IMG/VR virus record: IMGVR_UViG_3300035670_013167
Coordinates: 1-64,000 of that record
Strand: one strand, 5' to 3'
DNA: 64,000 nt
From: a virus
Shown: one piece after another, positions 1-60,361 of the stretch
How positions within the stretch are numbered: the stretch's first letter is position 1
Layout: the number at the start of each line of letters is the position of its first letter
Position numbers and translations under genes: made by a program
Notes under the pieces: model-generated
Told to the model about the DNA's origin: nothing
What the model saw: only the letters and a program-made list of their open reading frames with translations
Databases searched by the model: none

Positions 1-1069
1 TCGGAGTTTGAGTAGAAGTTAAAGTTGAAGTTGGGGTCTGAGTTTCTTGTGCAGTAGGAGTTTGAGTATTTGTCGGAGTTTGAGTAGAAGTTAAAGTTGG
101 AGTTTGAGTATTGGTGGGAGTTTGTGTGTTTGTAGGCGTAGAAGTTGGAGTCTGAGTTTCTTGTGCAGTAGGAGTTTGAGTATTGGTGGGAGTTTGTGTG
201 TTTGTAGGCGTAGAAGTTGGAGTCTGAGTTTCTTGCGAAAATCCTTCTGTGGGCGTGGTTGTTCTAGTTAGAGTGGGCGTCTTTGTTAGTGTTGGAGTTG
301 GTGTTTGAGTTGCTATGCGAGATTGGGTAGAAGTTAAAGTATTAGAATTAGTTATGGATACAGTAGGAGTAGGTGTTCTAGTAACAGATCTACTAGGAGT
401 TTTTGTTAAGGTTATTGTTGGCGTAGATGTTAATGTTTTTGTTAAAGAAAGAGTTTGAGTTATTGTAGAAGTAGAAGTTGTAGTTTTGGTAAGCGTAGGA
501 GTTGGAGTTGGGCTGGCGGTTAAAGTTTGAGTTTTTGTTGTTGTTGGAGTTGGTGTAGGTGTTCTTTTCCTATCTGTTTTTGTTAGAGTTAGAGTATTTG
601 TAAGGGTTTGAGTAGATGTTAAAGTTGGCGTTACTGTTGGTGTTGGGAATAAGCTAAAAGTAGGAGTAGTAAATATTTCAGGCGTTCTAGTTGGAGTTGG
701 AGTTAGTGTTCTAGTTTTTGTAATTGTAGGAGTCGAAGTTAATGTAGGAGTTAGTGTGGGAGTAGAAGTATTAGTGCTTGTTGAAGTTAAGGTTTGAGTA
801 TTTGTTGGAGTATTAGTTGGAGTTGATGTTCTTGTTCTAGTGGCAGTATTGGTATTAGTCGGAGTAAGCGTTAATGTAGAAGTAATTGTAGAAGTTAGTG
901 TAAGAGTTTTAGTCTGGGTTGAGGTTTGAGTAAAGGTGGGAGTTAAAGTAGGAGTAGAAGTTAAGGTGGGAGTTGCAGTAGGAGTTAAAGTGGGTAGAGG
1001 GGTTTCCGGAGACAAAGAAATTGTCGGAGTCAAATTTGGAGTAGGTGTCTGATAATAATATTCTGTCAT
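1..1069 (-). CDS. Mucin-like Thr/Pro-rich (xT)n repeat protein, 3'-partial; probable virion/surface protein
   Basis: ATG at 1069 preceded by AAGGA; open to the window edge; [45 protein letters not shown]...; absent from the ORF track because it is partial. Confidence 0.85.
99..236. repeat. 72-bp-period tandem duplication inside the Thr/Pro-rich gene
   Basis: ggagtttgagtattggtgggagtttgtgtgtttgtaggcgtagaagttggagtctgagtttcttg begins at both 99 and 171. Confidence 0.8.
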
Positions 1070-4142: not shown

Positions 4143-4878
4143 AGATTGTTACAAAAAAGGCTACAATACTCTTCCTAATCTCAATAAGATTGGAGAAGAA
4201 GAAGTGTTTGAAAAAGAAACACAAGATTGTTTTGCCATACAACTGGAGAAGAAAGAAGCTTTAGCCAATCAAAATGTTTTTTTTGAATACAATAATAATC
4301 CTAAGCACTATGAAATTAGCGAAAATTGGATTGTAAAAAACTATCCAAGAAAACTAAAAAGCACTAATTTTTTAGAAATAGCAAAAGAAACAGAAGAAGA
4401 CTTTTTAATTCATAAAATAGATAATGAAAAAGATTATCTGAGTAGTGCCCATGTTTGTTTTGCTAGTCACTGGAGACCAGAAGACAAGATAGGAAAATCT
4501 TTTGAAGAAATCCATCAGCCAGTTCCAATGAACTTAAAAAACAGCAAAAAGCTAGTTTATGCAATGATTCACGGAGGCATATTTGAAAGATTTGTTTGGA
4601 GCGTTGTTTATGAAAAAAAATACAATTTTCATCCAAGATTTGAATCTAAAAAATTCAATCCAGAAAATCCAGAAGTTTACATAAAGGTAGAACGACAAAT
4701 AACAGTAGGCTTTTCCGAACATAATTTTTGTTTGTTCATATTAAGACAATACTTAATAGAAGATATAGATAAAAGCATATTGGCAAATGTTATAGAAAAC
4801 ATGAGTCCAGAACAAAAAAAATACAAAGGTCTTAATAATTCAAAAGAACTATTATTTTTCCTAAGAAATAAAACGTGA
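4126..4878 (+). CDS. DUF3445 / heme-dependent oxidative N-demethylase alpha-like protein
   Basis: EDFLI, VCFASHWRPEDKIGKSFEEIHQPVP, ERFVWSV, YIKVERQ motifs. Confidence 0.8.
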   Translation: MNIRIKDCYKKGYNTLPNLNKIGEEEVFEKETQDCFAIQLEKKEALANQNVFFEYNNNPKHYEISENWIVKNYPRKLKSTNFLEIAKETEEDFLIHKIDNEKDYLSSAHVCFASHWRPEDKIGKSFEEIHQPVPMNLKNSKKLVYAMIHGGIFERFVWSVVYEKKYNFHPRFESKKFNPENPEVYIKVERQITVGFSEHNFCLFILRQYLIEDIDKSILANVIENMSPEQKKYKGLNNSKELLFFLRNKT

Positions 4879-5826
4879 TTTTGTTGTATTGAAATTGTCT
4901 GAAATTTCTGTTGCACTCAAGCCTCTGTTATAAAAATAACAAGCTCCGATTTTACCATTCAAATAAGGAGAAGAAACGCCGTTTCCTATGTATCCTAAAT
5001 ATAAATCATTCGATTCGTTATAAGAATCATTGCCATGAGAAGTAGAAATGTATTCTACATCATTAATATAAACCTTGGTAGTATTAGATGTAGAGGTTAT
5101 CTGTGACATAAAGGTATAAAGATACCAAGTATTTGTTGCTAAAGTGAGAGTGGAGCTGGTAATTTTTTGAGCAGCAGTTCCATTTGTCACACATCTAGCG
5201 AAAGAATTATTAGAAAATAAACCGCCCCAATATCCATCAAAAGAAAAACTTGATGAAAGCTTGCCAAAAACAGGCTGGCCTTGAGTGTTGGCTGGAGGTA
5301 AGATATCAAATTTAACCCAAACCTGGATCGTTTTTTGAATTGTTGTTGATAATGAAAATTCAGATTTATGAAAAATTTGAATTGTATCGTTAGTGCCGTC
5401 TAAATCAAACACGCCTCCATTGTCCGAAAGCCAAGTCGCCCCATTAATAGTAGCGTTATTTCCATTTGTTGTTTCATCCAACCATAGACCGCTAGTATAA
5501 TTTGCTGCGTCCAGTTTCATAAACAGCCCATCTTCAACAGGTTGATTAGATTCTGTTATCAATCCTTGCGTGAGAGTTGGAGTGGGGGTTGGTGTAAGTG
5601 TGGGAGTGCTGGTGGGGGTTGGAGTGGGATAAAGGAACGCAGAACACGTTAAGTTATATTCTAAAACAGTTATTTCATAAGTTCCCCAAATATCGTCAGC
5701 AGAGTAAGTAAAAGGAGCCGTAAAGGCGCCTAAATTAATTCCAACTTCCGGATTGTTGAAAGAATAGAAGGTGACATTAACCACTTTTCCATCAAAATTT
5801 TGAGAACTTATATTTGCTATTGGCAT
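4861..5826 (-). CDS. LamG/concanavalin A-like lectin-domain virion protein with PT-repeat linker
   Basis: [18 protein letters not shown] linker; LDAANY..WLD..GNNAT, FDLDGTND, YLNGKIG...YNRGLSATEI; CATAAATA 4 nt upstream. Confidence 0.85.
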   Translation of the reverse strand: MPIANISSQNFDGKVVNVTFYSFNNPEVGINLGAFTAPFTYSADDIWGTYEITVLEYNLTCSAFLYPTPTPTSTPTLTPTPTPTLTQGLITESNQPVEDGLFMKLDAANYTSGLWLDETTNGNNATINGATWLSDNGGVFDLDGTNDTIQIFHKSEFSLSTTIQKTIQVWVKFDILPPANTQGQPVFGKLSSSFSFDGYWGGLFSNNSFARCVTNGTAAQKITSSTLTLATNTWYLYTFMSQITSTSNTTKVYINDVEYISTSHGNDSYNESNDLYLGYIGNGVSSPYLNGKIGACYFYNRGLSATEISDNFNTTKSRFIS

Positions 5827-7139: not shown

Positions 7140-7814
7140 TTAAAAACAATTTTTGCTATTATCAATGCTCAAACCTTCTCTTTTTAAAAATATTTGTTCA
7201 ATTTCTTCAAAAGAAATTGGTCTGTATTCTCCTAGTATTTTATAGACATTATCAACACCAACATCCATGCTTAGTCTTTGAGGCATAAATTTATCCAGCC
7301 AATCTTCTGCCGTGGAGTGACAATGACCATAAAGCATCCAAGAACCTTGGTGAGATTTGTTCCAAACAGCTTGAGCATAGTGACTTAATATTATTAATTT
7401 ATTATTTATTTTAATTTCATTTCTTTCATGACACTCTTTAAAAAATCTAGCTATTTTTTTATTGTCGTGATTGCCCCAACAAAGAAAAATATTTTTACAA
7501 TTTATTCTTTTAAGATGCTTCTCAACAAATTCTTCAAGTCTATTTTTAGGAGCGTAACAAAAGTCACCTAAGTGCCAAAGAAAATCATTTTCTTTAACCA
7601 CTTCATTTATTTTATTAATTAAATAATCATTCATTCTTGCAATGGACTGCCAACTTGGAGTCCATGTTGACCAGATGGGGCAAGAAGGACCACCAGAACT
7701 CCAAATAAAATCTACTTTTTTTCTTTCTTCTTTAGAAAGACAGAAGTATCTTTTTGTATAAAGAGGTATTCTTCTGTGTCCGAAATGTGTATCAGCAGTG
7801 AACCAAATTTTCAT
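7140..7814 (-). CDS. Calcineurin-like metallophosphoesterase (phage type)
   Basis: TADTHFGH, HLGDF, GNHD, HY, YGHCH, DVGVD. Confidence 0.9.
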   Translation of the reverse strand: MKIWFTADTHFGHRRIPLYTKRYFCLSKEERKKVDFIWSSGGPSCPIWSTWTPSWQSIARMNDYLINKINEVVKENDFLWHLGDFCYAPKNRLEEFVEKHLKRINCKNIFLCWGNHDNKKIARFFKECHERNEIKINNKLIILSHYAQAVWNKSHQGSWMLYGHCHSTAEDWLDKFMPQRLSMDVGVDNVYKILGEYRPISFEEIEQIFLKREGLSIDNSKNCF

Positions 7815-8857
7815 GAACCATAACCATGTATCCATTCAGGATTATTTACAGACCAATGGACTACCCTTTCTAGCGTCTGTTGAAAGGTGTAAGGTTGCTT
7901 CCAACCAGCTTGACGCAATTTAGATCCATCTAAAGCATATCTTCTATCATATCCCGGCCTAGCTGATTCGCTAGGAATTAATTTATATTTGAGTTCTTTA
8001 TTCATAATTTTAGCAACCATCTCTGCTAATTCGAGATTATTCAGTTCCGTGTCGCCACAAATGTTCCATCTATCTGGTCGTTTTGCTCCATCTTTATACA
8101 TAGCAACGGGCTGCTTGAGTATATAAATCAAGGCGTCCGCTTTATTTTTTGCATCTAAATAAACTCTTTTTCCTATGCTGTCTAGAGAATCGCCATAAAT
8201 AGGCATTTCTTGATTCAAGGATATTTTTTGAATTATTTTGGGCAAAAACTTTTCAGGGTCTTGATATTCTCCTATTATATTCATGGTGTTGGTAATTATA
8301 ACGGGAACCCCAAAAGATCTCCAGTAACTTATTGCTACCGCTTCTTGTGCGGCTTTACTTGCAGCATAAGGATTTGAAGGCAAAATCACATCCCATTCAT
8401 GATGTCCAGGAGAACCCTCAGAAGCTTCTCCATAAACTTCATCTGTGGATATTTGAACAAATTTCTCTGGCTTTGTTTTTCTAGCAAACTCTAGCATGTT
8501 GATGCCGAGTTCATAATTATTTCTTAAACACGAAACAGGATCTTGCGTAGATCTCTCCACAGCAGAGTCTGCCGCCATGTTTATGATGTAATTTATTTTC
8601 TTTCTATTTAAATTGCCTCGCTCATCCACTCTTAAATCGGTAATTTGATTGTATAAAGAATCATTTATAGGCAAAGAAAGATCATGATACAAAATCTTAA
8701 CTCTATTTTTAAAATCAATATCTACTAATCTTCCCAAATCTCCTTTGTGTCGAAAAGAGTCGATGCCTATTATTTCCCAATCGGTATTTTCTATAAAATA
8801 ACTCAGACAATGAGAACCAATAAATCCACCAACTCCAGTCAATAAAACTCTTTTCAT
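7811..8857 (-). CDS. rfbB: dTDP-glucose 4,6-dehydratase-like NAD-dependent epimerase/dehydratase
   Basis: TGVGGFIG, ISTDEVYG, YAASKA, RPGYDRRYALD. Confidence 0.88.
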   Translation of the reverse strand: MKRVLLTGVGGFIGSHCLSYFIENTDWEIIGIDSFRHKGDLGRLVDIDFKNRVKILYHDLSLPINDSLYNQITDLRVDERGNLNRKKINYIINMAADSAVERSTQDPVSCLRNNYELGINMLEFARKTKPEKFVQISTDEVYGEASEGSPGHHEWDVILPSNPYAASKAAQEAVAISYWRSFGVPVIITNTMNIIGEYQDPEKFLPKIIQKISLNQEMPIYGDSLDSIGKRVYLDAKNKADALIYILKQPVAMYKDGAKRPDRWNICGDTELNNLELAEMVAKIMNKELKYKLIPSESARPGYDRRYALDGSKLRQAGWKQPYTFQQTLERVVHWSVNNPEWIHGYGS

Positions 8858-16068: not shown

Positions 16069-18006
16069 TTATTCGCCTATTTTCTCAAGTATTCTCGATA
16101 TTACAGGATTTCTTATTATGTCTGTTTTGTCTAATTGAAAAGTTCCGACATCTTTAATTCCTTTTAATTTATCAAGCCAATAATACAAACCAGATTTTCC
16201 ATTTGGCAAATCTGATTGCTTGTCATCACCCACAAGAACCGCCTTACTGTTAAATCCTACTCTGGTTATGAATAGCTTAATTTGCTCTTTTGTGCAGTTT
16301 TGACATTCATCAAGAATCATGTAAGAATCATGGTAATTCATGCCTCTCATATAAGCCAAAGGAGCAATGACTATTTCATTTTCACCTCGTCTATTAATTC
16401 CATTATTTATAAATGTTTCTAATTCTTGCTTGCTAAGATAGTGAGATAATTCATAATAAATTGGTTGCAAATAAGGATCTAATTTTTCAGAAAAAGTATT
16501 GTGTGTGACTATGAAATCGTCGGTTATATATAAGTGTTCTGGGTTTTCTACCATTATACATTGAACTTCATCAAATCTAGCTTTTTCTATTGATATTACT
16601 TCTAGTTTTGAAACATTTTTACCCTTAAATCTCTCTGCTTTTCTTTTAATATAAAAAGGATTGATATCTTTCGTCATGTAAATTGAGACCTCGTATGAAA
16701 TTCTTTTTGCTTTAATAAAATTATTTTTAGTCTCTTTTCTTCTATCTCTTATTCTTAATTTTGCTTTTCCTCCCAAAGATCTAACTATTTCAATAACATC
16801 TTCAGCAAGACTTATAGAAGTTGTATAAAAATTAACTTGATCAGCAGATCTTTTTCTACAAGACCCATCTGTGTCTAGTAGCCCTCGAAGGATATCTATT
16901 CTATCTTGAATGCTTGAGTATTTATAATCAAAAGGAATAAACTTATCCCAGGCTTTTTTTCCATACAAACCAGAATCTCTAAAAAATTTCAACACAGGAT
17001 TTTTCCATGATTCTCCATTTTTTTCATATTTAAACCCATTGACAGTAGCTCCATAAAAAACTCTTGTGCTTAATGTTTTATAACCGCAATCAACAAATTC
17101 TAAAGCTTTTTTATTAGTAGGAAAATAATAAGAATTTTTGGTTTTAATTTCAGTAATTTTTACGGGTTTTGCACTTTCAATATATCCATCTATACTTGAA
17201 ATTGTATAAATACAAGCTTTACTATATTGTTTTTTAGCTTTTTTACAGAATAGTCCAATCGCTTTTATTTCATCATTTACTCTGTCAACTATTTCTTGAT
17301 CCGCGCTTGCGAATCTAACATGGGTTCCTTCTACGCAACCATCTCCAAGCATCACTCCTAAAGTATAAGGAGGAACAGGCAAATGTTTTTTTTCAAAATG
17401 AACTGCTTCATTTCTCGGAATAAAATGTCTTATGCCATTTTTGATATCAAACATAATATCTCTTGTTAATCTAACTTTACCTTTTTGTTTTTTATTTTTT
17501 TCCTCTTTTGTTTGCGTGTACCAAAGATGATCCTCACAACAAGATGTAGAAGTGCCATCAGAAGTAAATAAATTATATACGTCTTTTTTGCCCTTAGGAT
17601 ATATTTCCAAAATTTTTGTTGGAAGGCCGTCTCTACCTATAATAAAATCTCCCACTTTAACTTCTCTCATGGTAGTCCAGCCATTTTGTGTTAACAATCT
17701 AGCATCTAGTGGTTGAGGACCTGGGAGATAGCCCATGCTTGGACCAGATTCTACGACAGGCCTTGTTATAATTAATTTTTTATAATATCCATTTAGTAGT
17801 TTTTCTATTCCATAAGCAACGGCCAACTTTGTTTTTCCACTGCCCGCTGGCCCTGTTGCTAAAGTGACGGTATTTTCCGCTAAAGTCACTATTAGGTCCT
17901 CTTGATTTTTTGTTTTAGGTTTTAGCAAAGATCTTGTTTTGCATTGTTGTACATTAGCTTGTTTGTTTTGCTGACTTTCTTTTTTATTTCTTTTAGGTCT
18001 AGGCAT
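16069..18006 (-). CDS. phoH: PhoH-family ATPase containing an intein
   Basis: GPAGSGKT, ITRPVVE, GYLPG|...|TFSEKLDPY, PLAYMRG, ILDECQN, GDDKQSDL. Confidence 0.95.
   Translation of the reverse strand: MPRPKRNKKESQQNKQANVQQCKTRSLLKPKTKNQEDLIVTLAENTVTLATGPAGSGKTKLAVAYGIEKLLNGYYKKLIITRPVVESGPSMGYLPGPQPLDARLLTQNGWTTMREVKVGDFIIGRDGLPTKILEIYPKGKKDVYNLFTSDGTSTSCCEDHLWYTQTKEEKNKKQKGKVRLTRDIMFDIKNGIRHFIPRNEAVHFEKKHLPVPPYTLGVMLGDGCVEGTHVRFASADQEIVDRVNDEIKAIGLFCKKAKKQYSKACIYTISSIDGYIESAKPVKITEIKTKNSYYFPTNKKALEFVDCGYKTLSTRVFYGATVNGFKYEKNGESWKNPVLKFFRDSGLYGKKAWDKFIPFDYKYSSIQDRIDILRGLLDTDGSCRKRSADQVNFYTTSISLAEDVIEIVRSLGGKAKLRIRDRRKETKNNFIKAKRISYEVSIYMTKDINPFYIKRKAERFKGKNVSKLEVISIEKARFDEVQCIMVENPEHLYITDDFIVTHNTFSEKLDPYLQPIYYELSHYLSKQELETFINNGINRRGENEIVIAPLAYMRGMNYHDSYMILDECQNCTKEQIKLFITRVGFNSKAVLVGDDKQSDLPNGKSGLYYWLDKLKGIKDVGTFQLDKTDIIRNPVISRILEKIGE
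16498..17718 (-). mobile_element. Class-3-type intein with LAGLIDADG homing endonuclease (407 aa)
   Basis: Begins PQPLDA (no Cys/Ser1); EDHLW, VQCIMV, IVTHN|T; LGVMLGDG and LRGLLDTDG. Confidence 0.88.
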
Positions 18007-18067: not shown

Positions 18068-19150
18068 ATGAATTTTAAAAAATGGTTTTTATTAAAAGAA
18101 AATAATATTGAAAAAATGCAAATAGACTCAAATGAAATTTTGTTTTTTCAATATGCTCCTCAAATACAAATACATTCCGGCTTAGGAAGTATAGATAAAG
18201 AATATTTCGTTAAGCTTTTTAATGAAGAAAAGTCTTTATCAAAAATAAAAGAATTCGTGCATTCTTATGTGAAAAACGACCCAAGTGGGGAAAGGCTTGG
18301 CTGTCGATTGGTTGTTTATAATAATGGCGACATAGTGCTTGGAAAAGCGATGAATCATGTTTATCTAATTTATCAACCAAACGGACAAGGAAGACCAAAC
18401 ACAGAAGGGTATTTTGATTTCAATAATCAAAAAATAACACTTTCAGAATCTAATGATAAAGAGTCTTTCCAAAAAATATCAGTTTGGAAAAAAATATTAA
18501 ATAATTTGATAAAATCTGGTCTGATTAATAAAAACTGGCGGGTTGTTGGTTGTCCGCCGAGTTGCGAAAAAGATTCGAACGCGAAAGTCCAAGACATATT
18601 GAATCAAAAAAATAACATACAAAATTCATCAGAAGATTCTTTAAAGAAAAAGGAAACAGATGCTTTGGTTCGATCTTTTATGACACAGCAAGCAATTCAA
18701 AATAAAAATTCAAACATGATGGGATACATGTACAGATACGGTGAAAGCAATGAAAACAAAGATGTTAATAAAACTCTTAGAAAATTGCCGAAAGATCATT
18801 TCGATCTAATAAAAAAATATAAAATACAATTCGAGCCAAATAACACCCTCAAAGGCGACTCGGATCACATAGGCTTCATAGATGAAGAAAAGAAAAAAAT
18901 AAAAGTTGCCGCTCCATGGCGTTATGGACGAGAATTTACGCTATTACACGAAATTGCCCATGCAGTTTGGAAATACAAAGTGTCCGAAGAGAAGAAAAAA
19001 GAATGGAGCAAAATAATCAAGAATACTAAAAACAAACAAAAACAAAATAACGAAGAGTTATTTTGCATGGCGTATGCAAACTACTATTCAAGACACAAAG
19101 TTGAAATTCACAACCATGAAAAATGGAATAATTTTATAAAATCGCTCTAA
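18068..19150 (+). CDS. Protein with capsid-targeting-like N-terminus and C-terminal HEXXH zincin-like domain
   Basis: MNFKKWFLLKE; TLLHEIAHAVW...EELFC; CATAAATA 6 nt upstream. Confidence 0.75.
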   Translation: MNFKKWFLLKENNIEKMQIDSNEILFFQYAPQIQIHSGLGSIDKEYFVKLFNEEKSLSKIKEFVHSYVKNDPSGERLGCRLVVYNNGDIVLGKAMNHVYLIYQPNGQGRPNTEGYFDFNNQKITLSESNDKESFQKISVWKKILNNLIKSGLINKNWRVVGCPPSCEKDSNAKVQDILNQKNNIQNSSEDSLKKKETDALVRSFMTQQAIQNKNSNMMGYMYRYGESNENKDVNKTLRKLPKDHFDLIKKYKIQFEPNNTLKGDSDHIGFIDEEKKKIKVAAPWRYGREFTLLHEIAHAVWKYKVSEEKKKEWSKIIKNTKNKQKQNNEELFCMAYANYYSRHKVEIHNHEKWNNFIKSL

Positions 19151-19959
19151 ATTAGACGTAAATCATTCGAACAATTGTCTAAAAAACTTTTTGTAACTTT
19201 TTTAAAGTTTATAATATTTTTATTTTTATTAGGGATTGACAAAATACTCTTAAATGGCAAAGATTCTCCGAAAGAAAATTCTCTAAGATTGTTATGAATT
19301 CTTTTGTTAAAATAAGGAAGACAACCATTGCAATAATGGATAAAATTAGAACTTTTATCTTCCATTAAAGAAGATTCTAAATCAACACGCACATCACTTT
19401 CTAAATTTTTTGATAAAACATAGGCAAATGCAACCATTTCTATTTGCCAACGAGCAGCACCTTTCATCAGATAATAAAAAATGTCGAACATCTTGATTAA
19501 AATATTATGAATGTCTAGTAGCAAATTGTTATCGAAATTATTAAAATAATAAACTCCACCACAAGGTTTCCATTGACTTTCTTCTATATCAAAATTATAT
19601 CCGCATTTTTTTAAATTTTTATACTCTGAAAAAGACCAGTATTGTGAATATGAACAACTTGAATAATCGAGCGGACTGACCATGATCATATCTGGGTCGA
19701 TTACAGCAAATGGCTGCTTTATTATATTATTTTTAAGAGCAGTCCATAAAGAAAATGTTTTATTAAAAGGAAGATAATTTTTTTTTCTTCCATAATTTTC
19801 ATGATAAAAAACATTCCGAAATCTTAGTTTTTTCTTTTCGAAATTAGCACAACCTATAACCAAATTATTTTCTAATCCAAAAAGCCTCATGCTTTCATGC
19901 AAAAGTTCTATTTGCCATCTAAAAAATTGACAATTTTCTATACTAACGAAGTATTGCAT
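19147..19959 (-). CDS. Peptidyl-Ser/Hyp O-glycosyltransferase-like protein (plant SERGT1/HPAT, GT96/GT95-like)
   Basis: SIENCQFFRWQ, YLPFNK, AVIDPDMI (DxD), GGVY, WQIEMVAFA, FIHYC occur in the same order as the plant SERGT1/HPAT motifs. Confidence 0.65.
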   Translation of the reverse strand: MQYFVSIENCQFFRWQIELLHESMRLFGLENNLVIGCANFEKKKLRFRNVFYHENYGRKKNYLPFNKTFSLWTALKNNIIKQPFAVIDPDMIMVSPLDYSSCSYSQYWSFSEYKNLKKCGYNFDIEESQWKPCGGVYYFNNFDNNLLLDIHNILIKMFDIFYYLMKGAARWQIEMVAFAYVLSKNLESDVRVDLESSLMEDKSSNFIHYCNGCLPYFNKRIHNNLREFSFGESLPFKSILSIPNKNKNIINFKKVTKSFLDNCSNDLRLI

Positions 19960-20579
19960 ACTTTATATTTTTTAAATACTTCTTTATATTTTTTATGGAG
20001 AGCTTTTTTGTTGGTCACATCTTTAGTTAAAAAATAACTAATCTCCGTTGCCATGTACGCCTGAATCTCGTCATTCAAAACAGAAGAGCAATAACCTTTT
20101 GATTTTAGGTTATTTTTTAATTTATTGTAATTTGCTTTTGATATGCTTTTGGTTATTAAATCCATTTCTTTTTTATATTTTTGATCGGAGTAGTACAATC
20201 CGTGACAAAGCTCATGGTAAAAAGTTGGAGTATTTAATTTAGTAACACCTATTATGTAAGATTTTTTTATTTTTATTTTTTTTAATATTTCAATAAAAAT
20301 ATCATCATAAGGAGTTTCTCTTTTATTTATTTTATAACAACTCTTAGCAACTTCGGTTGGCAAATTAAAACCAGACCAATCCTTTGCATAAGAAAAACAA
20401 CCAGAATTAGTTTCTGAGTACCACTTGTGATAATCCCAGATTGAAAATTTGCTTTTATTAAATTTTTTGTTTGGACTTTCGTAAAATTCTTGAACTCTAC
20501 AAAAAAGCATTCCCAAGTCATATTGGCTCGAAACAACAACCGTAAATATTTTTTCAGCAATTTGCTTTATGCTATACAT
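19938..20579 (-). CDS. HEXXH-containing phage protein
   Basis: FCRVQEFYESP, FYHELCHGLY, DEIQAYM. Confidence 0.7.
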   Translation of the reverse strand: MYSIKQIAEKIFTVVVSSQYDLGMLFCRVQEFYESPNKKFNKSKFSIWDYHKWYSETNSGCFSYAKDWSGFNLPTEVAKSCYKINKRETPYDDIFIEILKKIKIKKSYIIGVTKLNTPTFYHELCHGLYYSDQKYKKEMDLITKSISKANYNKLKNNLKSKGYCSSVLNDEIQAYMATEISYFLTKDVTNKKALHKKYKEVFKKYKVCNTSLV

Positions 20580-21039
20580 ATGGACAATTTTTATCTAGTT
20601 CGTGTCTGATTTCATCAACTTCATAACATTTTCCAAATCCTCCATATAAAACATTAGGAGCATTGAAAACCAGACCAGGAAAATCAGATACGTTTTTATA
20701 AGCATGAATAACACCAGGAGGAACAATGACCGCGACCGGATTGTTTTTTCCTACCAAGTGAGTTTCTTTGTGAATATTGTCATTCGTATTTTTCCACAAA
20801 TATAATTCAAAATTAGCAGGTCCAACAAAACAAAAATAATCAGACTGAGTTCTGTGCTCGTGCGGGCCTCTCATCACGCCAGGCTTAGTTTCGCTAAAAT
20901 AGGCCATAACAGGTCTATGATCCGGCTCCAAGCAGTCGTTTCTAAATAGCTCTATTAAAGAACCTCGGTCATCGCTAAAAATTTCCAAATCAAAAAAAAC
21001 AACTCCCTCAATTGCCGTCTTTTGTTTTGACTTTTTCAT
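20572..21039 (-). CDS. rfbC: dTDP-4-dehydrorhamnose 3,5-epimerase-like cupin
   Basis: FSDDRGSLIELF, S.TKPGVMRGPHEH, VIVPPGVIHAY. Confidence 0.85.
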   Translation of the reverse strand: MKKSKQKTAIEGVVFFDLEIFSDDRGSLIELFRNDCLEPDHRPVMAYFSETKPGVMRGPHEHRTQSDYFCFVGPANFELYLWKNTNDNIHKETHLVGKNNPVAVIVPPGVIHAYKNVSDFPGLVFNAPNVLYGGFGKCYEVDEIRHELDKNCPYV

Positions 21040-21767
21040 AATGATTGGCCCTGTTTTTCTCTAACAATCTGCGGTATTGTCACCATGGCTTTTTCTATGA
21101 TTCTCTCATAATCATTAATATCTAAAGAAAATATCCGGTAGTGGTGAGCGATTATATTTTTCATAATCTGAGGCTTGAATCCTTTAGATTGAGCCTCAAC
21201 AGTAAAAATAAAAGGAGCGCCCACTTGTGGCAATCTTTCTTCAAAAGGACCTACCTTATCCCAGCAATCGCGAGTAACAAGCATACACCATTCTTGAATA
21301 AAATCCACCTTTTGATTTTGAAGATAATAAGACTGAAGCTCCAAACCTACTAAACCTGAATTAGACGATTCAGAAACATTAATTAATAAATCTATCCAAG
21401 CTGGGTTGGTTATCACAACATCAGAATGTAAAAAAATTAAATATTTCGAATCTTTATCTGCTTTTTCTACGCCTTTGTTTGCAGCCCCGCTCCAATATAA
21501 ATTTTCTTTATTTTTTACAACAACAACTTCGTCTTTTATGTCTTCTAAAAAATCTTGAGTATCTTGACCAGAATTGTTGTCAGAAACAATAACTTCATAA
21601 TTATTATTTACACTAGTAACCGCTATTGATTGAAGACAAATATTTAAGTACTCAGGGCGGTCTTTGTGAACGACAATTATCGAAACTTGTTCTTCGCTAT
21701 TATTTTGAAGACTCAAATTTAATTCAGGTCTTTCACCTTCTAAGGGATTATGTGGAGGGGTTATCAT
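21036..21767 (-). CDS. GT2-family glycosyltransferase
   Basis: VSIIVVH, LNICLQSI, YEVIVSDNNS, ANKG, LIFLHSDV. Confidence 0.85.
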   Translation of the reverse strand: MITPPHNPLEGERPELNLSLQNNSEEQVSIIVVHKDRPEYLNICLQSIAVTSVNNNYEVIVSDNNSGQDTQDFLEDIKDEVVVVKNKENLYWSGAANKGVEKADKDSKYLIFLHSDVVITNPAWIDLLINVSESSNSGLVGLELQSYYLQNQKVDFIQEWCMLVTRDCWDKVGPFEERLPQVGAPFIFTVEAQSKGFKPQIMKNIIAHHYRIFSLDINDYERIIEKAMVTIPQIVREKQGQSL

Positions 21768-21909
21768 TTTCTTTTTCTTCTTCCTTTATGGTAAAAACAA
21801 AATCCGGCACAGGAGGAGCCAAAGGCCCTAGTTCTATTGTAGCTCCATTTTCTAAATTTATAACTACATTATCACATTCTTTTTCATTATTGTCAATTTT
21901 ATCATTCAT
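21748..21909 (-). CDS. Small acidic hypothetical protein (53 aa, not in ORF track)
   Basis: MNDKIDNNEKECDNVVINLENG...; GGAGG SD; fills the gap between two genes. Confidence 0.55.
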   Translation of the reverse strand: MNDKIDNNEKECDNVVINLENGATIELGPLAPPVPDFVFTIKEEEKENDNPST

Positions 21910-46615: not shown

Positions 46616-47299
46616 TTATTTTTTAATTATAATAGAAGTTATACTTGTTGGGCCAACTCTAAAAACTTTTACGGACTTAATATTTTCTTCTAAATATTTT
46701 AATTCGCCATCTGAGAGACTATGTGGCTTTGAAGTTTCTACATTAAAATTATTGTGTTTTTCAAATTGATCTAATAATTCAAGCGGAGTCACATAACCAG
46801 GAATTCCCCATCCCCAAGTTTGTGCTTTTTCAGGAACTTCAACTTCAATACTACTGTGCAAGTCTTCTAATATGTAAACTCCTCCAGATTTCAAAGATCT
46901 AAAAAAATAAGCAAATGTTATTTGTTGGTCATAAACATTATGCGATCCATCATCTATTATAACATCATAATTTTGTAGCTTTTTAGAATATTCAATAACT
47001 AAATCTCTTCTAGATTGATCAAACCATTCAGTAGTTATTCTTTCTGAATCTTTTATTTCATGTAAATTTATATCAAGACCTAGTATTTTTGCATTTGGAA
47101 AATAATCTCTCCACACTTTTAGGGAATTTCCAGGCACCCAACCAACTTCCTCCCAAAACCCCCCTATTCCGATTTCACAAAGCAAACTTACTTGGTCCCT
47201 AATCGAGCCAAGTGCTTCTTCATATGCGGTATTATAATAATTGTGAGTAAAATCTTTATCAGTCGGATATTTTTTAGAAATTTCACTTAAAGTTTTCAT
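46616..47299 (-). CDS. Class I SAM-dependent methyltransferase-like protein
   Basis: TDK..HNYY, LCEIGI, SLKVWRDYFPNA.ILGLDI, DVIIDDGSH, GGVYILED. Confidence 0.8.
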   Translation of the reverse strand: MKTLSEISKKYPTDKDFTHNYYNTAYEEALGSIRDQVSLLCEIGIGGFWEEVGWVPGNSLKVWRDYFPNAKILGLDINLHEIKDSERITTEWFDQSRRDLVIEYSKKLQNYDVIIDDGSHNVYDQQITFAYFFRSLKSGGVYILEDLHSSIEVEVPEKAQTWGWGIPGYVTPLELLDQFEKHNNFNVETSKPHSLSDGELKYLEENIKSVKVFRVGPTSITSIIIKK

Positions 47300-47472
47300 T
47301 TTTGATTCCACATCTCCCAGTTTTGTTCTGATTTTTTTTTATTACCTTCTTTATAGCCTTCTAAATAAGCTTTTTTTAGTAAGCTTAAATTTTTGTCATC
47401 TTCAAAATGCTGATTTTTCAACCACATTTCAAATAAATAATTAGGATCTATATAAAAATCATCAGTGCTCAT
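47296..47472 (-). CDS. Small hypothetical protein (58 aa, not in ORF track)
   Basis: ATGA overlaps at both ends; MSTDDFYIDPNYYFEMW... Confidence 0.6.
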   Translation of the reverse strand: MSTDDFYIDPNYLFEMWLKNQHFEDDKNLSLLKKAYLEGYKEGNKKKSEQNWEMWNQK

Positions 47473-59038: not shown

Positions 59039-60361
59039 TTATGCTTTATCTTCATTTTTTATTTTAGATATAATTGAAGAAGTAGAATAACCAGGCTCAT
59101 TTGGAATAATTACTACTTCTGCCAAATCTTTTCCAACCACATCGTTCACAGAGTAATCAGAACCCTTTACAATAATATCCGGTTTTATTTTATTAATTAA
59201 TTCATAAGGAGTATCTTCTTCAAAGATAATCACTTCGTCAACAAACCTTAAAGATTCAAGCATTTTTTTTCTTATATCTTGATTATTTACAGGCCTGTCT
59301 TTACCCTTTAATTTTCTTGTAGATTCATCTGAATTTATGCCAACTATTAATTTATTGCCTAATTCTTTAGATTTACTCAAACTTTCCAAATGCCCAGAAT
59401 GCAATAAATCAAACACGCCTGACGTGAAAATAACCTTGTTAAACAAATTATTTGGTTCTATTGGTTTATTAAATTTATTCTTAACATAAATTGAAGCTCC
59501 ATCAAAAGCAATTTCTATTGATTTGTTTATAGAAAAGTCACTAAGTAATCCAGAGCACAATAAAGAAATAAAACAATCACCGGCTCCTATAACAGAAACA
59601 GCCTTTGTAGAGCTTTTTGGAAAAAATTCAAAATAATTATTTTCTACACAACCAACAACTCCTTTTCCTTCTATAGTTATCACTATAATTTCACAATCAG
59701 TATCTTTCTTTATAACTTCTATCTGGTCTTTCCAGTGTTCTTTACCAGTTAGTTCAAAAGCTTCTTTGTAATTAGGCTTTATTAAATCACACCCTCGCCA
59801 TTTAGAAATTGGACCCTTTTTTGGATCCACTATCTTGAATGCATTTTGCAGAGAATCAAACATTTTTTTTATTTCAAAATCATTAAAAATTCCCTTATTG
59901 TAATCCGAAAAAATTACAGCGTCGAATTTGTAAACTTCTAAATTCTTAGAAATCTTATTTTGAAAAAAATTCAATTGACTTTTTGTCAAATTATAATTTT
60001 TAGATTCGACATCAATTCTACACAAAGGAAAATCATTTTGATAAAATCTTTTTTTTCTAGGAACTTTAGAAAAATAAGGAAGCAAAACACTAAATTCTGT
60101 GTTTATGAAACTAAATTCAGACAACAAATCATAAATTTCTAAATCTAAAAATCCAAAATAAAATATTTCTTTGTTAAAATTTAAAAATTGATAACAAACA
60201 TTTGTAGCGCCACCTAATAATCTTTTATCAGGAAAGTAATTTTCGCAATTTAGAATTGGTATAGGAAATTCAGGACTAATTTTTTCTGCATTTACAAAAT
60301 GATAATCATCTATTATTGCATCGCCAACAACTGCTATTTTCTTATTTTGTAAATTAAACAT
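59039..60361 (-). CDS. hldE: Bifunctional heptose-7-phosphate kinase / heptose-1-phosphate adenylyltransferase
   Basis: VVGDAIID, ISPEFP, GGATNV, SDYNKG, IKPN, GAGD; FTSGVFDLLHSGH, GINSDES, KGSDY, STSSII. Confidence 0.9.
   Translation of the reverse strand: MFNLQNKKIAVVGDAIIDDYHFVNAEKISPEFPIPILNCENYFPDKRLLGGATNVCYQFLNFNKEIFYFGFLDLEIYDLLSEFSFINTEFSVLLPYFSKVPRKKRFYQNDFPLCRIDVESKNYNLTKSQLNFFQNKISKNLEVYKFDAVIFSDYNKGIFNDFEIKKMFDSLQNAFKIVDPKKGPISKWRGCDLIKPNYKEAFELTGKEHWKDQIEVIKKDTDCEIIVITIEGKGVVGCVENNYFEFFPKSSTKAVSVIGAGDCFISLLCSGLLSDFSINKSIEIAFDGASIYVKNKFNKPIEPNNLFNKVIFTSGVFDLLHSGHLESLSKSKELGNKLIVGINSDESTRKLKGKDRPVNNQDIRKKMLESLRFVDEVIIFEEDTPYELINKIKPDIIVKGSDYSVNDVVGKDLAEVVIIPNEPGYSTSSIISKIKNEDKA

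Follow-up and report, generated by a model that had tools for sequence, protein, structure and literature searches.

Plant hydroxyproline O-arabinosyltransferases (HPAT1–3; family GT95, Pfam PF23452) transfer L-Araf, and the peptidyl-serine galactosyltransferase SGT1/SERGT1 (GT96) transfers Gal, in both cases with a UDP-sugar as donor and a peptide hydroxyl as acceptor. GT95 is related to GT96 and to GT8 (PMC8012813, PMC4908140), and a GT-A-type fold is predicted for it (PMC8476585). HPAT is a type II membrane protein (PMC8012813), SGT1 is located at the ER membrane and in the Golgi, and both require hydroxyproline in the acceptor (PMC4908140). Viral glycosyltransferases (GTs) with a demonstrated virion target include A64R of PBCV-1 (2p6w), R699 of Mimivirus (9dyt) and the products of the capsid and tail-tube glycosylation genes of mycobacteriophages (Freeman et al. 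2023, cited in PMC12619734). The phage GT described here has HPAT/SGT1 as its nearest sequence family; it differs in sequence family from A64R, R699 and the mycobacteriophage enzymes, and in contrast to these its virion target is only putative. Whereas the plant enzymes are membrane-anchored, it is a soluble, cytoplasmic protein of 270 aa that has no Golgi or ER anchor.

The gene is located at 19147..19959 of the window, that is, the whole stretch of 64,000 nucleotides that was analysed, which belongs to a 106,763-bp IMG/VR record of an uncultured phage from subsurface samples, estimated by CheckV to be 21% complete, with the genome scaling to ~500 kb. The record is viral, with bacterial-type DnaE, PrkA and SpoVR and one PHROG virion structural match, as in a tailed phage, and relatives of the GT family have tape-measure and DNA-end-protector genes as neighbours, again in records scaling to ~500 kb. 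The features referred to in the text are:

2..1069, minus strand: Thr/Pro-repeat ("mucin-like") protein, N-terminal 356 aa, running off the contig; 44% Thr, 14% Pro
4861..5826, minus strand: protein composed of an N-terminal domain, TP linker and LamG/ConA-like domain (PF13385, E 5e-13)
7811..8857, minus strand: NDP-hexose 4,6-dehydratase, RmlB-like SDR (PF16363 and PF01370, E 1e-41 to 1e-42; TIGR01181, 212 bits)
19147..19959, minus strand: HPAT/GT8-like GT-A glycosyltransferase, intact ORF of 270 aa with ATG start
19938..20579, minus strand: HExxH protein of a phage-only family, 213 aa; its 3' end overlaps the start of the GT by 22 nt
20572..21039, minus strand: RmlC-like cupin of the NDP-4-keto-6-deoxyhexose epimerase or isomerase type, 155 aa
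21036..21767, minus strand: GT2-family glycosyltransferase, 243 aa, soluble, no TM segment (PF00535, E 1.3e-16)
21868..21896, minus strand: sigma-70-like promoter candidate upstream of the block (TTGACA-17-TG-GATAAT, 11 of 12)

The deposited protein (P0001, also the Atlas record) has 247 aa and begins at M24. Conservation among the homologs extends to residue 1, which makes the ATG at 19959, 22 nt inside the upstream gene, the true start and corrects the public gene call; in the AF2 model (pLDDT 93.9) strand 1 begins straight away at residue 2. The highest Kyte-Doolittle value of the GT is 1.28 (19-residue window), and a transmembrane segment is found neither here nor in the other three proteins encoded in the block; the GT, the GT2 and the cupin also have no signal peptide. 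No second copy of the GT family was found in the 106,763-bp record.

An earlier note on this DNA had recognized a glycosyltransferase in a phage from six ordered motifs, and both observations are borne out. The motifs SIENCQFFRWQ (residues 6–16), YLPFNK (62–67), VIDPDMI (86–92), GG (134–135), WQIEMVAFA (171–179) and IHYC (207–210) are all found in the order claimed, which is that of HPAT and SGT1 as well, and they coincide with the most conserved columns of the family, indicating that they do not arise by chance. The family was delimited by an exhaustive profile search, in which 325 cluster representatives pass E<=1e-3 and 237 of these also pass E<=1e-10. Nineteen close homologs share invariant residues Y3, S6, E8, W15, Q16, H53, N55, G57, N66, K67, P83, F84, D90, M91, H208, Y209, F217 and K219. 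In a set of 148 representatives W15 and Q16 are still invariant, N66, D90, Y209, G212, F217 and K219 are conserved to at least 90% (D90 in 91%, G212 in 96% and K219 in 97%), and H208 is present in 84%. At position 88, 131 of the 148 carry D, H or E, the wider family having mostly H-x-D at the place where the window GT has D-x-D. D88-P-D90 and H208 are putative metal ligands, and K219 is a putative diphosphate contact.

Direct searches with the window GT gave no match in Pfam, PHROGs, NCBIfam or the PDB sequences (phmmer and two profiles being used for PDB), and the HPAT family PF23452 (threshold 23.9 bits) gives no match at E<=1 with the protein or at E<=10 in the six-frame translated record; the link to HPAT is thus transitive. 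PF23452 is the sole recurrent Pfam family among the representatives, with matches in 11 of the 148, and is present in 16% and 40% of the members of the viral neighbour clusters in the Atlas. The link goes through the homolog P0036, which is 34% identical to the window GT (E 9e-41) and scores 32.7 bits against PF23452 (cutoff 23.9, E 6.9e-8), with residues 61–234 aligned to positions 71–243 of the 307-position profile. This match spans 173 residues, from the HxN...NK through the DxD to the HY..G..K motif, and P0036 and the window GT belong to one 28-member clade (SH-aLRT 99) containing all the individually identified HPAT hitters. As PF23452 is the only recurrent family and a clade-mate passes its Pfam threshold, the sequences point to an HPAT/GT8-like enzyme by kinship through P0036, probably a distant relative of GT95 and GT96 and not placed inside them. 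The suggestion of a plant HPAT/SERGT1-like protein therefore holds for the nearest sequence family, which is PF23452 by way of P0036, while the window GT itself scores nothing and has no membrane anchor; the accompanying label "plant-type" is misleading, since the family is a large phage-only lineage and shows no recent import from plants. Two further annotations were set aside, namely DUF7164 (Bacillota), the top Atlas match, which stays unconfirmed with no HMMER match to back it among the 148 members, and CoiA_C, a short-motif coincidence in 7 members covering 27 residues of the N-terminal motif only.

GT8 enzymes carry a C-terminal motif of the H-x2-G-x2-K-P-W type. The predicted structure of the phage GT matches GT-A/GT8 folds and has the DxD and C-terminal His/Lys motif of GT8-type enzymes, at 8–12% sequence identity to the retaining GT8 enzymes LgtC (1g9r), glycogenin (1zcu/3u2t) and the Skp1 alpha-galactosyltransferase GlaT1 (6mw8). 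The GT8 profile PF01501 (threshold 24.3 bits) does not match the window GT; the best family member, again P0036, reaches 19.5 bits through the C-terminal motif only, which aligns with the end of the GT8 model.

The family is almost confined to phages of ~500 kb, and the closest homologs (P0002, P0006 and P0008) are found on contigs of 174–487 kb; tblastn with the window GT and P0021 against 50,697 GenBank phage records gave no match. A metagenome scan for loci of the window clade detected only L064 (1.3 kb) and L065 (7.1 kb), and rescans of IMG/VR with P0008 and the alignment of the DxD clade, to which P0002, P0006, P0008, P0011 and P0014 belong, added no further loci of that clade. Fused or longer forms (633–2000 aa) were not found in the family, which is weak evidence. 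The genes next to the GT in a sister clade are not sugar genes; they encode a CCA-adding-type nucleotidyltransferase, a kinase, a SprT-like protein and a tail module, the SprT-like gene (110 aa) being directly upstream of the GT in 26 loci. A conserved pair of HExxH protein and GT was considered and rejected: the 213-aa protein of the window is not a member of the sister-clade SprT-like family, with no match in hmmsearch and an hhalign probability of 3.5% in which just the HExxH is aligned.

In the window the GT is the last gene of a block in the order GT2, cupin, HExxH protein and GT, with stop/start overlaps at 21036–39, 20572–79 and 19938–59, and contigs of 95–99% identity, recovered from wastewater, estuary and marine runs, span the junctions; the sequencing runs listed as carrying the sequence include no RNA data set. 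The cupin matches PF00908 (E 2e-7), FdtA (1.5e-3) and phrog_8784, and TIGR01221 with 28.7 bits, far under the equivalog cutoff; the HExxH protein is possibly a small zincin-type metallopeptidase, which is a lead only. The promoter candidate is only a match to the consensus, and sites of this kind are as numerous in the region as expected after shuffling. RmlB-like, RmlC-like and GT2 genes, as proposed previously, are present at 7811..8857, 20572..21039 and 21036..21767, and the methyltransferase proposed along with them comes down to a sub-threshold match of 13.3 bits at 46616..47311, 27 kb away. Gene context for the window clade comes from two loci, the window and L065. The L065 GT begins within the stop of a dehydratase gene (TGATG), to which it is translationally coupled, and this dehydratase is a 63%-identical ortholog of the product of 7811..8857, so that the GT is tied to deoxy-sugar genes in both loci of its clade. 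An NDP-sugar pyrophosphorylase (NTP_transferase), a 4-reductase and GT1 or GT4 enzymes were not found in the 106,763-bp record, ~21% of the genome.

The gene, its fold and motifs, the family kinship, the arrangement of the block and the linkage to deoxy-sugar genes are established, and for the enzyme's donor, stereochemistry and acceptor we infer the following. The GT would be a soluble, cytoplasmic, metal-dependent GT-A enzyme within the GT8-like retaining enzymes. Its N-terminal half (strand 1 with YFVSIEN, W15-Q16 and N66-K67) would bind the nucleotide sugar, D88-x-D90 and H208 would hold Mn2+ and K219 would touch the diphosphate, and the sugar would be moved onto a hydroxyl group with the anomeric configuration retained. 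Together with the phage NDP-hexose 4,6-dehydratase the block may then make a short glycan containing 6-deoxyhexose on a cytoplasmic acceptor, most likely Ser/Thr of phage structural or decoration proteins, for which the Thr/Pro-rich proteins would be obvious candidates. To this reading as a whole, a soluble GT-A enzyme of a phage family forming a sister lineage of HPAT/SGT1 and acting with the block and the dehydratase in the glycosylation of a cytoplasmic acceptor, we give an even chance.

The narrower form, in which a phage-only sister family of GT95/GT96 starts O-glycosylation of Thr/Pro-repeat virion proteins in huge phages with a phage-made 6-deoxyhexose donor, appears unlikely. Thr/Pro-repeat ORFs are indeed present in the window at 2..1069 and 4861..5826. 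The product of the former is weakly similar to a TP-rich protein of 820 aa from locus L023; that of the latter matches phrog_8510, "virion structural protein" (E 8e-16), and is a possible virion decoration protein. Both are candidate acceptors only, as the two genes are located 13–18 kb away, outside the block, with no link seen to the GT that was supposed to decorate their products. The expected co-occurrence of GT and TP repeats is also not seen in most of the sister clade, where six of the nine other genomes with the GT have no TP repeats above control, four genomes that are at least 85% complete among them. In this clade G002, G005, G023, G046, G010, G039 and G031 have no TP-repeat coding or no more than the control, indicating that TP repeats are not the general acceptor of the family. 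The acceptors of HPAT and SGT1 contain hydroxyproline, so a prolyl 4-hydroxylase would be expected for HPAT-like action; none (PF13640) was found in the 106,763-bp record, ~21% of the genome.

The acceptor might instead be a host molecule, such as a lipid-linked precursor of the envelope, a polymer of the cell wall, one of the host's proteins or a small molecule, and the modification would serve takeover of the host, superinfection exclusion or counter-defence. GT8-type acceptors are very diverse, ranging from LPS and glycogenin to the glycans of Skp1 and SRRP, one clade of ~500-kb phages has the family as near-core and includes TP-repeat-free genomes, its sister-clade gene adjoins RNA-repair-type genes rather than genes for structural glycoproteins, and surveys of huge phages class GTs as envelope-associated auxiliary genes (bioRxiv 10.64898/2026.10.24.761521). 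We nevertheless consider a host acceptor doubtful, at about one chance in five, because the GT, GT2 and cupin have neither membrane segment nor signal peptide, the annotated genes include no flippase, polymerase or Und-P-type initiating transferase, and the nearest sequence family, HPAT/SGT1, works on proteins.

DNA is a still less probable acceptor. Phage GT-A enzymes are known to glycosylate 5hmC (Pyle et al., bioRxiv 10.1101/2023.12.21.572611); the clusters described there contain two GTs, or a GT and an epimerase, and their second-step enzymes are GT8/WaaJ-like with PBCV-1 A64R as the best PDB match. The window follows the same cluster logic: its GT likewise matches GT8 and A64R, adjoins a GT2 and a sugar-modifying cupin, and could with these build or extend a sugar chain on a hydroxymethylated base that blocks host nucleases, all proteins of the block being cytoplasmic. 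Unlike those clusters, the block has no neighbouring C5-methyltransferase, TET-like dioxygenase or hydroxymethylase. Neither a TET/JBP dioxygenase (PF12851) nor a C5-methyltransferase (PF00145) was found in the 106,763-bp record (~21% of the genome), and the sole ThyA-family gene (PF00303, 60887–61741, 284 bits) is 41 kb off, far beyond the ~10 kb taken as the limit for such a cluster. Three sister-clade genomes, each at least 98% complete, also lack ThyA; TET was sought without success in nine sister-clade genomes, which is weak evidence as the TET control was silent. A decayed, non-catalytic protein that has kept only the GT fold for a structural or regulatory function is very improbable. 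Such a role might suit the 17 of the 148 members that have no D, E or H at position 88, but the window GT retains D88, D90, H208, G212, K219 and W15-Q16, purifying conservation is clear over the 325 clusters, and the gene is intact in an operon conserved among relatives from several habitats.

To our knowledge, the study of virion and DNA glycosylation by phage-encoded enzymes is still young; few of these enzymes are characterised, and none of those comes from phages of ~500 kb. The present family comprises at least 325 sequence clusters, with no named member and no solved structure, and gives the plant-specific families GT95 and GT96 their first sizeable non-eukaryotic relatives. As a small soluble protein, the phage GT is an easy target for structural and mechanistic work of a kind that the membrane-bound plant enzymes have, as far as we know, not yet permitted. 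A DNA or host acceptor would make this a new GT family for phage counter-defence or takeover, and a Thr/Pro-repeat acceptor would mean that bacterial viruses have a new system of protein O-glycosylation. In the latter case the phage would encode its own "mucin" coat, a bacterial-virus counterpart of virion glycosylation in chloroviruses and mimiviruses, and this would hint at an old GT8-derived ancestor common to the plant and phage enzymes.

The ORF at 19147..19959 on the minus strand is intact and encodes, from an ATG start, a GT-A-type glycosyltransferase (GT) of 270 aa. The protein is a real glycosyltransferase, and the large, unnamed family to which it belongs is specific to huge phages and distantly related to plant HPAT/SGT1 and to GT8. 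The six motifs quoted in the earlier note are all present in the order given (residues 6-16, 62-67, 86-92, 134-135, 171-179 and 207-210), and they are exactly the conserved columns of the family alignment and not chance matches. The public gene call, P0001, has 247 aa and starts at M24, and the ESM Atlas copy is equally short; this start loses window positions 19891-19959 and with them the first beta-strand and the invariant W15-Q16. Since the homologs are conserved from residue 1 onward (M1, Y3, S6, E8, W15 and Q16), the true start is the ATG at position 19959, where the gene shares 22 nt with the one upstream. Family entries in databases may be systematically shortened where the start overlaps an upstream gene.

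The window protein has no match in Pfam, PHROGs, NCBIfam or PDB sequences, and the AlphaFold2 model made from the family alignment is confident (pLDDT 93.9, pTM 0.92). In the D88-P-D90 motif, 131 of 148 family representatives have D, H or E at position 88 (79 His, 35 Asp, 17 Glu), and the 17 members with other residues may be inactive or use another ligand. D90 is kept in 91% of the representatives, and near the C-terminus H208, G212 and K219 are kept in 84, 96 and 97% respectively. In GT8 enzymes the Mn2+ ligands are the DxD motif and a C-terminal His, with a Lys in contact with the diphosphate; by this likeness D88, D90 and H208 would bind Mn2+ in the window protein, with K219 contacting the diphosphate.

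The assignment to HPAT/SGT1 proposed in the earlier note holds as a kinship, seen through the homolog P0036, the tree and the recurrence of PF23452 (HPAT), but not as formal Pfam membership, as PF23452 gives the window protein no score at all. On 48 related viral records this model gives two weak matches only, of 15-17 bits, and it is the sole Pfam family recurring meaningfully over the 148 representatives (11 members). P0036, which shares 34% identity with the window protein along the full length (E 9e-41), scores 32.7 bits against PF23452 (curated threshold 23.9, E 6.9e-8), with residues 61-234 aligned to positions 71-243 of 307 in a stretch running from the HxN...NK motif over the DxD to the HY..G..K motif, and at 19.5 bits it also touches the C-terminus of the GT8 model. 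A maximum-likelihood tree splits the 148 representatives at SH-aLRT 99 into a 28-member clade marked by D-x-D and a 120-member sister clade that is mostly H-x-D. The former includes the window protein, P0036 and all the other members seen to match PF23452 individually, namely P0009, P0011, P0015, P0024 and P0084. The nearest neighbours in the ESM Atlas include Uroviricota clusters with PF23452 in 16% and 40% of their members. In the literature, GT95 has GT96/SGT1 (PMC8012813) and GT8 (PMC4908140) as relatives, and the prediction for it is GT-A-like (PMC8476585). We read the family as truly, though remotely, related to HPAT/SGT1 among the GT8-like retaining GT-A enzymes, and as a separate, phage-only lineage. 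The plant HPAT/SGT1 proteins have a membrane anchor whereas the window protein has none, and "plant-type" should not be taken to mean a recent transfer from plants.

The window protein has 20 close homologs with 44-75% identity, and more distant ones, all of them unnamed metagenomic proteins. A profile search run exhaustively over 1.84 billion cluster representatives gives 325 matches at E<=1e-3, of which 237 reach E<=1e-10, and the best 150 of the 325 are almost all single-domain proteins of 250-310 aa, with a few fragments and longer forms as exceptions. The family is absent from GenBank phages in tblastn searches with the window protein and the homolog P0021, and among about 186,000 cellular species it is found on three MAG contigs, one of which (546 kb) is probably a mis-binned phage. 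In IMG/VR, 61 loci encode family members, all of the H-x-D sister clade and none of the window's clade. CheckV scaling of nearly all family-bearing IMG/VR records points to about 500 kb (for instance, a record of 55.5 kb is rated 11% complete, one of 436 kb 85%, and those of 527 and 533 kb 100%). The source record, an IMG/VR virus of 106,763 bp that is 21% complete according to CheckV, carries genes for a bacterial-type DnaE with inteins, PrkA, SpoVR and a sigma factor.

The GT gene closes a block of minus-strand genes in which each stop overlaps the next start, and one more sugar-pathway gene lies apart from it:

21896-21868, minus strand: strong sigma-70-like site just upstream of the block, by consensus match only
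21036-21767, minus strand: GT2, first gene of the block
20572-21039, minus strand: RmlC-like cupin, second gene
19938-20579, minus strand: HExxH protein of 213 aa, third gene, directly before the GT gene
7811-8857, minus strand: NDP-hexose 4,6-dehydratase, apart from the block

Annotation bears out the RmlB-type dehydratase, the RmlC-like cupin and the GT2 named earlier. Short contigs from wastewater, estuary and marine runs (95-99% identical) span the GT/HExxH-gene and cupin/GT2 junctions, indicating that close relatives sampled by other studies keep this arrangement. None of the four block proteins has a hydrophobic segment, and they are therefore cytoplasmic. An NDP-sugar pyrophosphorylase was not found in the 106,763-bp record, which is 21% of the genome. 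A bifunctional HldE-like gene at 59039-60361 (minus strand) combines a PfkB heptose-7-phosphate kinase with a heptose-1-phosphate adenylyltransferase (242 bits against NF008454, below the equivalog cutoff), and is a phage-encoded route towards ADP-heptose, another possible sugar donor for the phage glycosyltransferases.

As acceptor, the earlier note proposed mucin-like virion stalks made of Thr/Pro-rich proteins, and two such ORFs are indeed present, as judged by composition and by LamG and PHROG matches:

2..1069, minus strand: Thr/Pro-rich ORF, 44% Thr and 14% Pro over 356 aa, running off the contig
4861..5826, minus strand: ORF with TP linker and LamG domain, the latter matching a PHROG of virion structural proteins

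They lie 13-18 kb from the GT gene, and an S/T/P-rich ORF is found within 10 kb of it in only 7 of the 61 loci; in loci L018 and L023 a small TP-linker protein family is directly upstream. The expected co-occurrence with TP repeats (T-P-T-x-T-P-T, ten GT-bearing genomes) is seen in part: the repeats are abundant in G000, G008 and G027, but G002, G005, G023, G046, G010, G039 and G031 have none or no more than the control, and four of the genomes without repeats above control are at least 85% complete. Because most GT-bearing genomes of the sister clade are without them, TP repeats cannot be the family's general acceptor. Nothing in distance, nearby S/T/P-rich ORFs or co-occurrence ties the GT to the Thr/Pro-rich proteins, and decoration of mucin-like stalks is rather unlikely. 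Phage GT-A enzymes, including GT8/A64R-like second-step ones, build glycans on 5hmC, from clusters of two glycosyltransferases or of one with an epimerase (bioRxiv 10.1101/2023.12.21.572611). The window block resembles these clusters and could by that token build glycans on hydroxymethylated phage DNA, but TET/JBP and a C5-methyltransferase were not found in the 106,763-bp record, the one ThyA gene it carries lies 41 kb from the GT gene, and ThyA is missing from three near-complete sister-clade genomes. We regard this role as improbable.

Other phages of the group encode large multi-domain proteins with globular domains, by eye of FGE/sulfatase-modifying and beta-propeller type, joined by long TP/TxTP linkers. 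The loci for these and for the small TP-linker family upstream of the GT gene are:

L023:668-3130, TP/TxTP-linker protein
L054:1846-6634, TP/TxTP-linker protein
L018:3-575, TP-linker protein
L023:9160-9927, TP-linker protein

A CCA-adding-type nucleotidyltransferase gene adjoins the GT gene, in either orientation, in 56 of the 61 IMG/VR loci, often with a PNK-like kinase and a SprT-like gene in between. The SprT-like gene, of 110 aa, is present in 26 sister-clade loci and often overlaps the GT start, a histidine phosphatase is often found downstream, and the gene group borders a tail module that includes the tape measure and DNA end protector genes. Examples of such neighbours are:

L002:4562-6031, context of a GT homolog
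L002:9631-9963, context of a GT homolog

In the window, a convergent gene for a 360-aa protein (18068-19150, plus strand) shares its last 4 nt with the end of the GT gene. The C-terminal zincin motif TLLHEIAHAV of this protein, and no more than the motif, aligns with the SprT-like gene that precedes the GT gene in other phages (hhalign probability 63%, 10 columns). The 645-aa ORF at 16069-18006 (minus strand) has a large insert, intein-like by eye, and contigs from one subsurface and one marine run join 16488 to 17481 and to 17762, skipping about 1.0-1.3 kb roughly at the limits of this insert; insert-free alleles may thus circulate in relatives.

Gene context is available for two loci of the window's own clade, the window and L065, a 7.1-kb contig from the metagenome scan encoding P0022. 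In L065 a dehydratase gene 63% identical to window 7811-8857 has its stop in the same TGATG as the start of the GT gene, and the next gene is a homolog of the window metallophosphoesterase at 7140-7835. Given this coupling and the window block, both loci link the GT gene physically to genes of the 6-deoxyhexose pathway. This link (n=2) is the best functional clue, and deoxy-sugar enzymes encoded by the phage are the most likely partners of the window GT.
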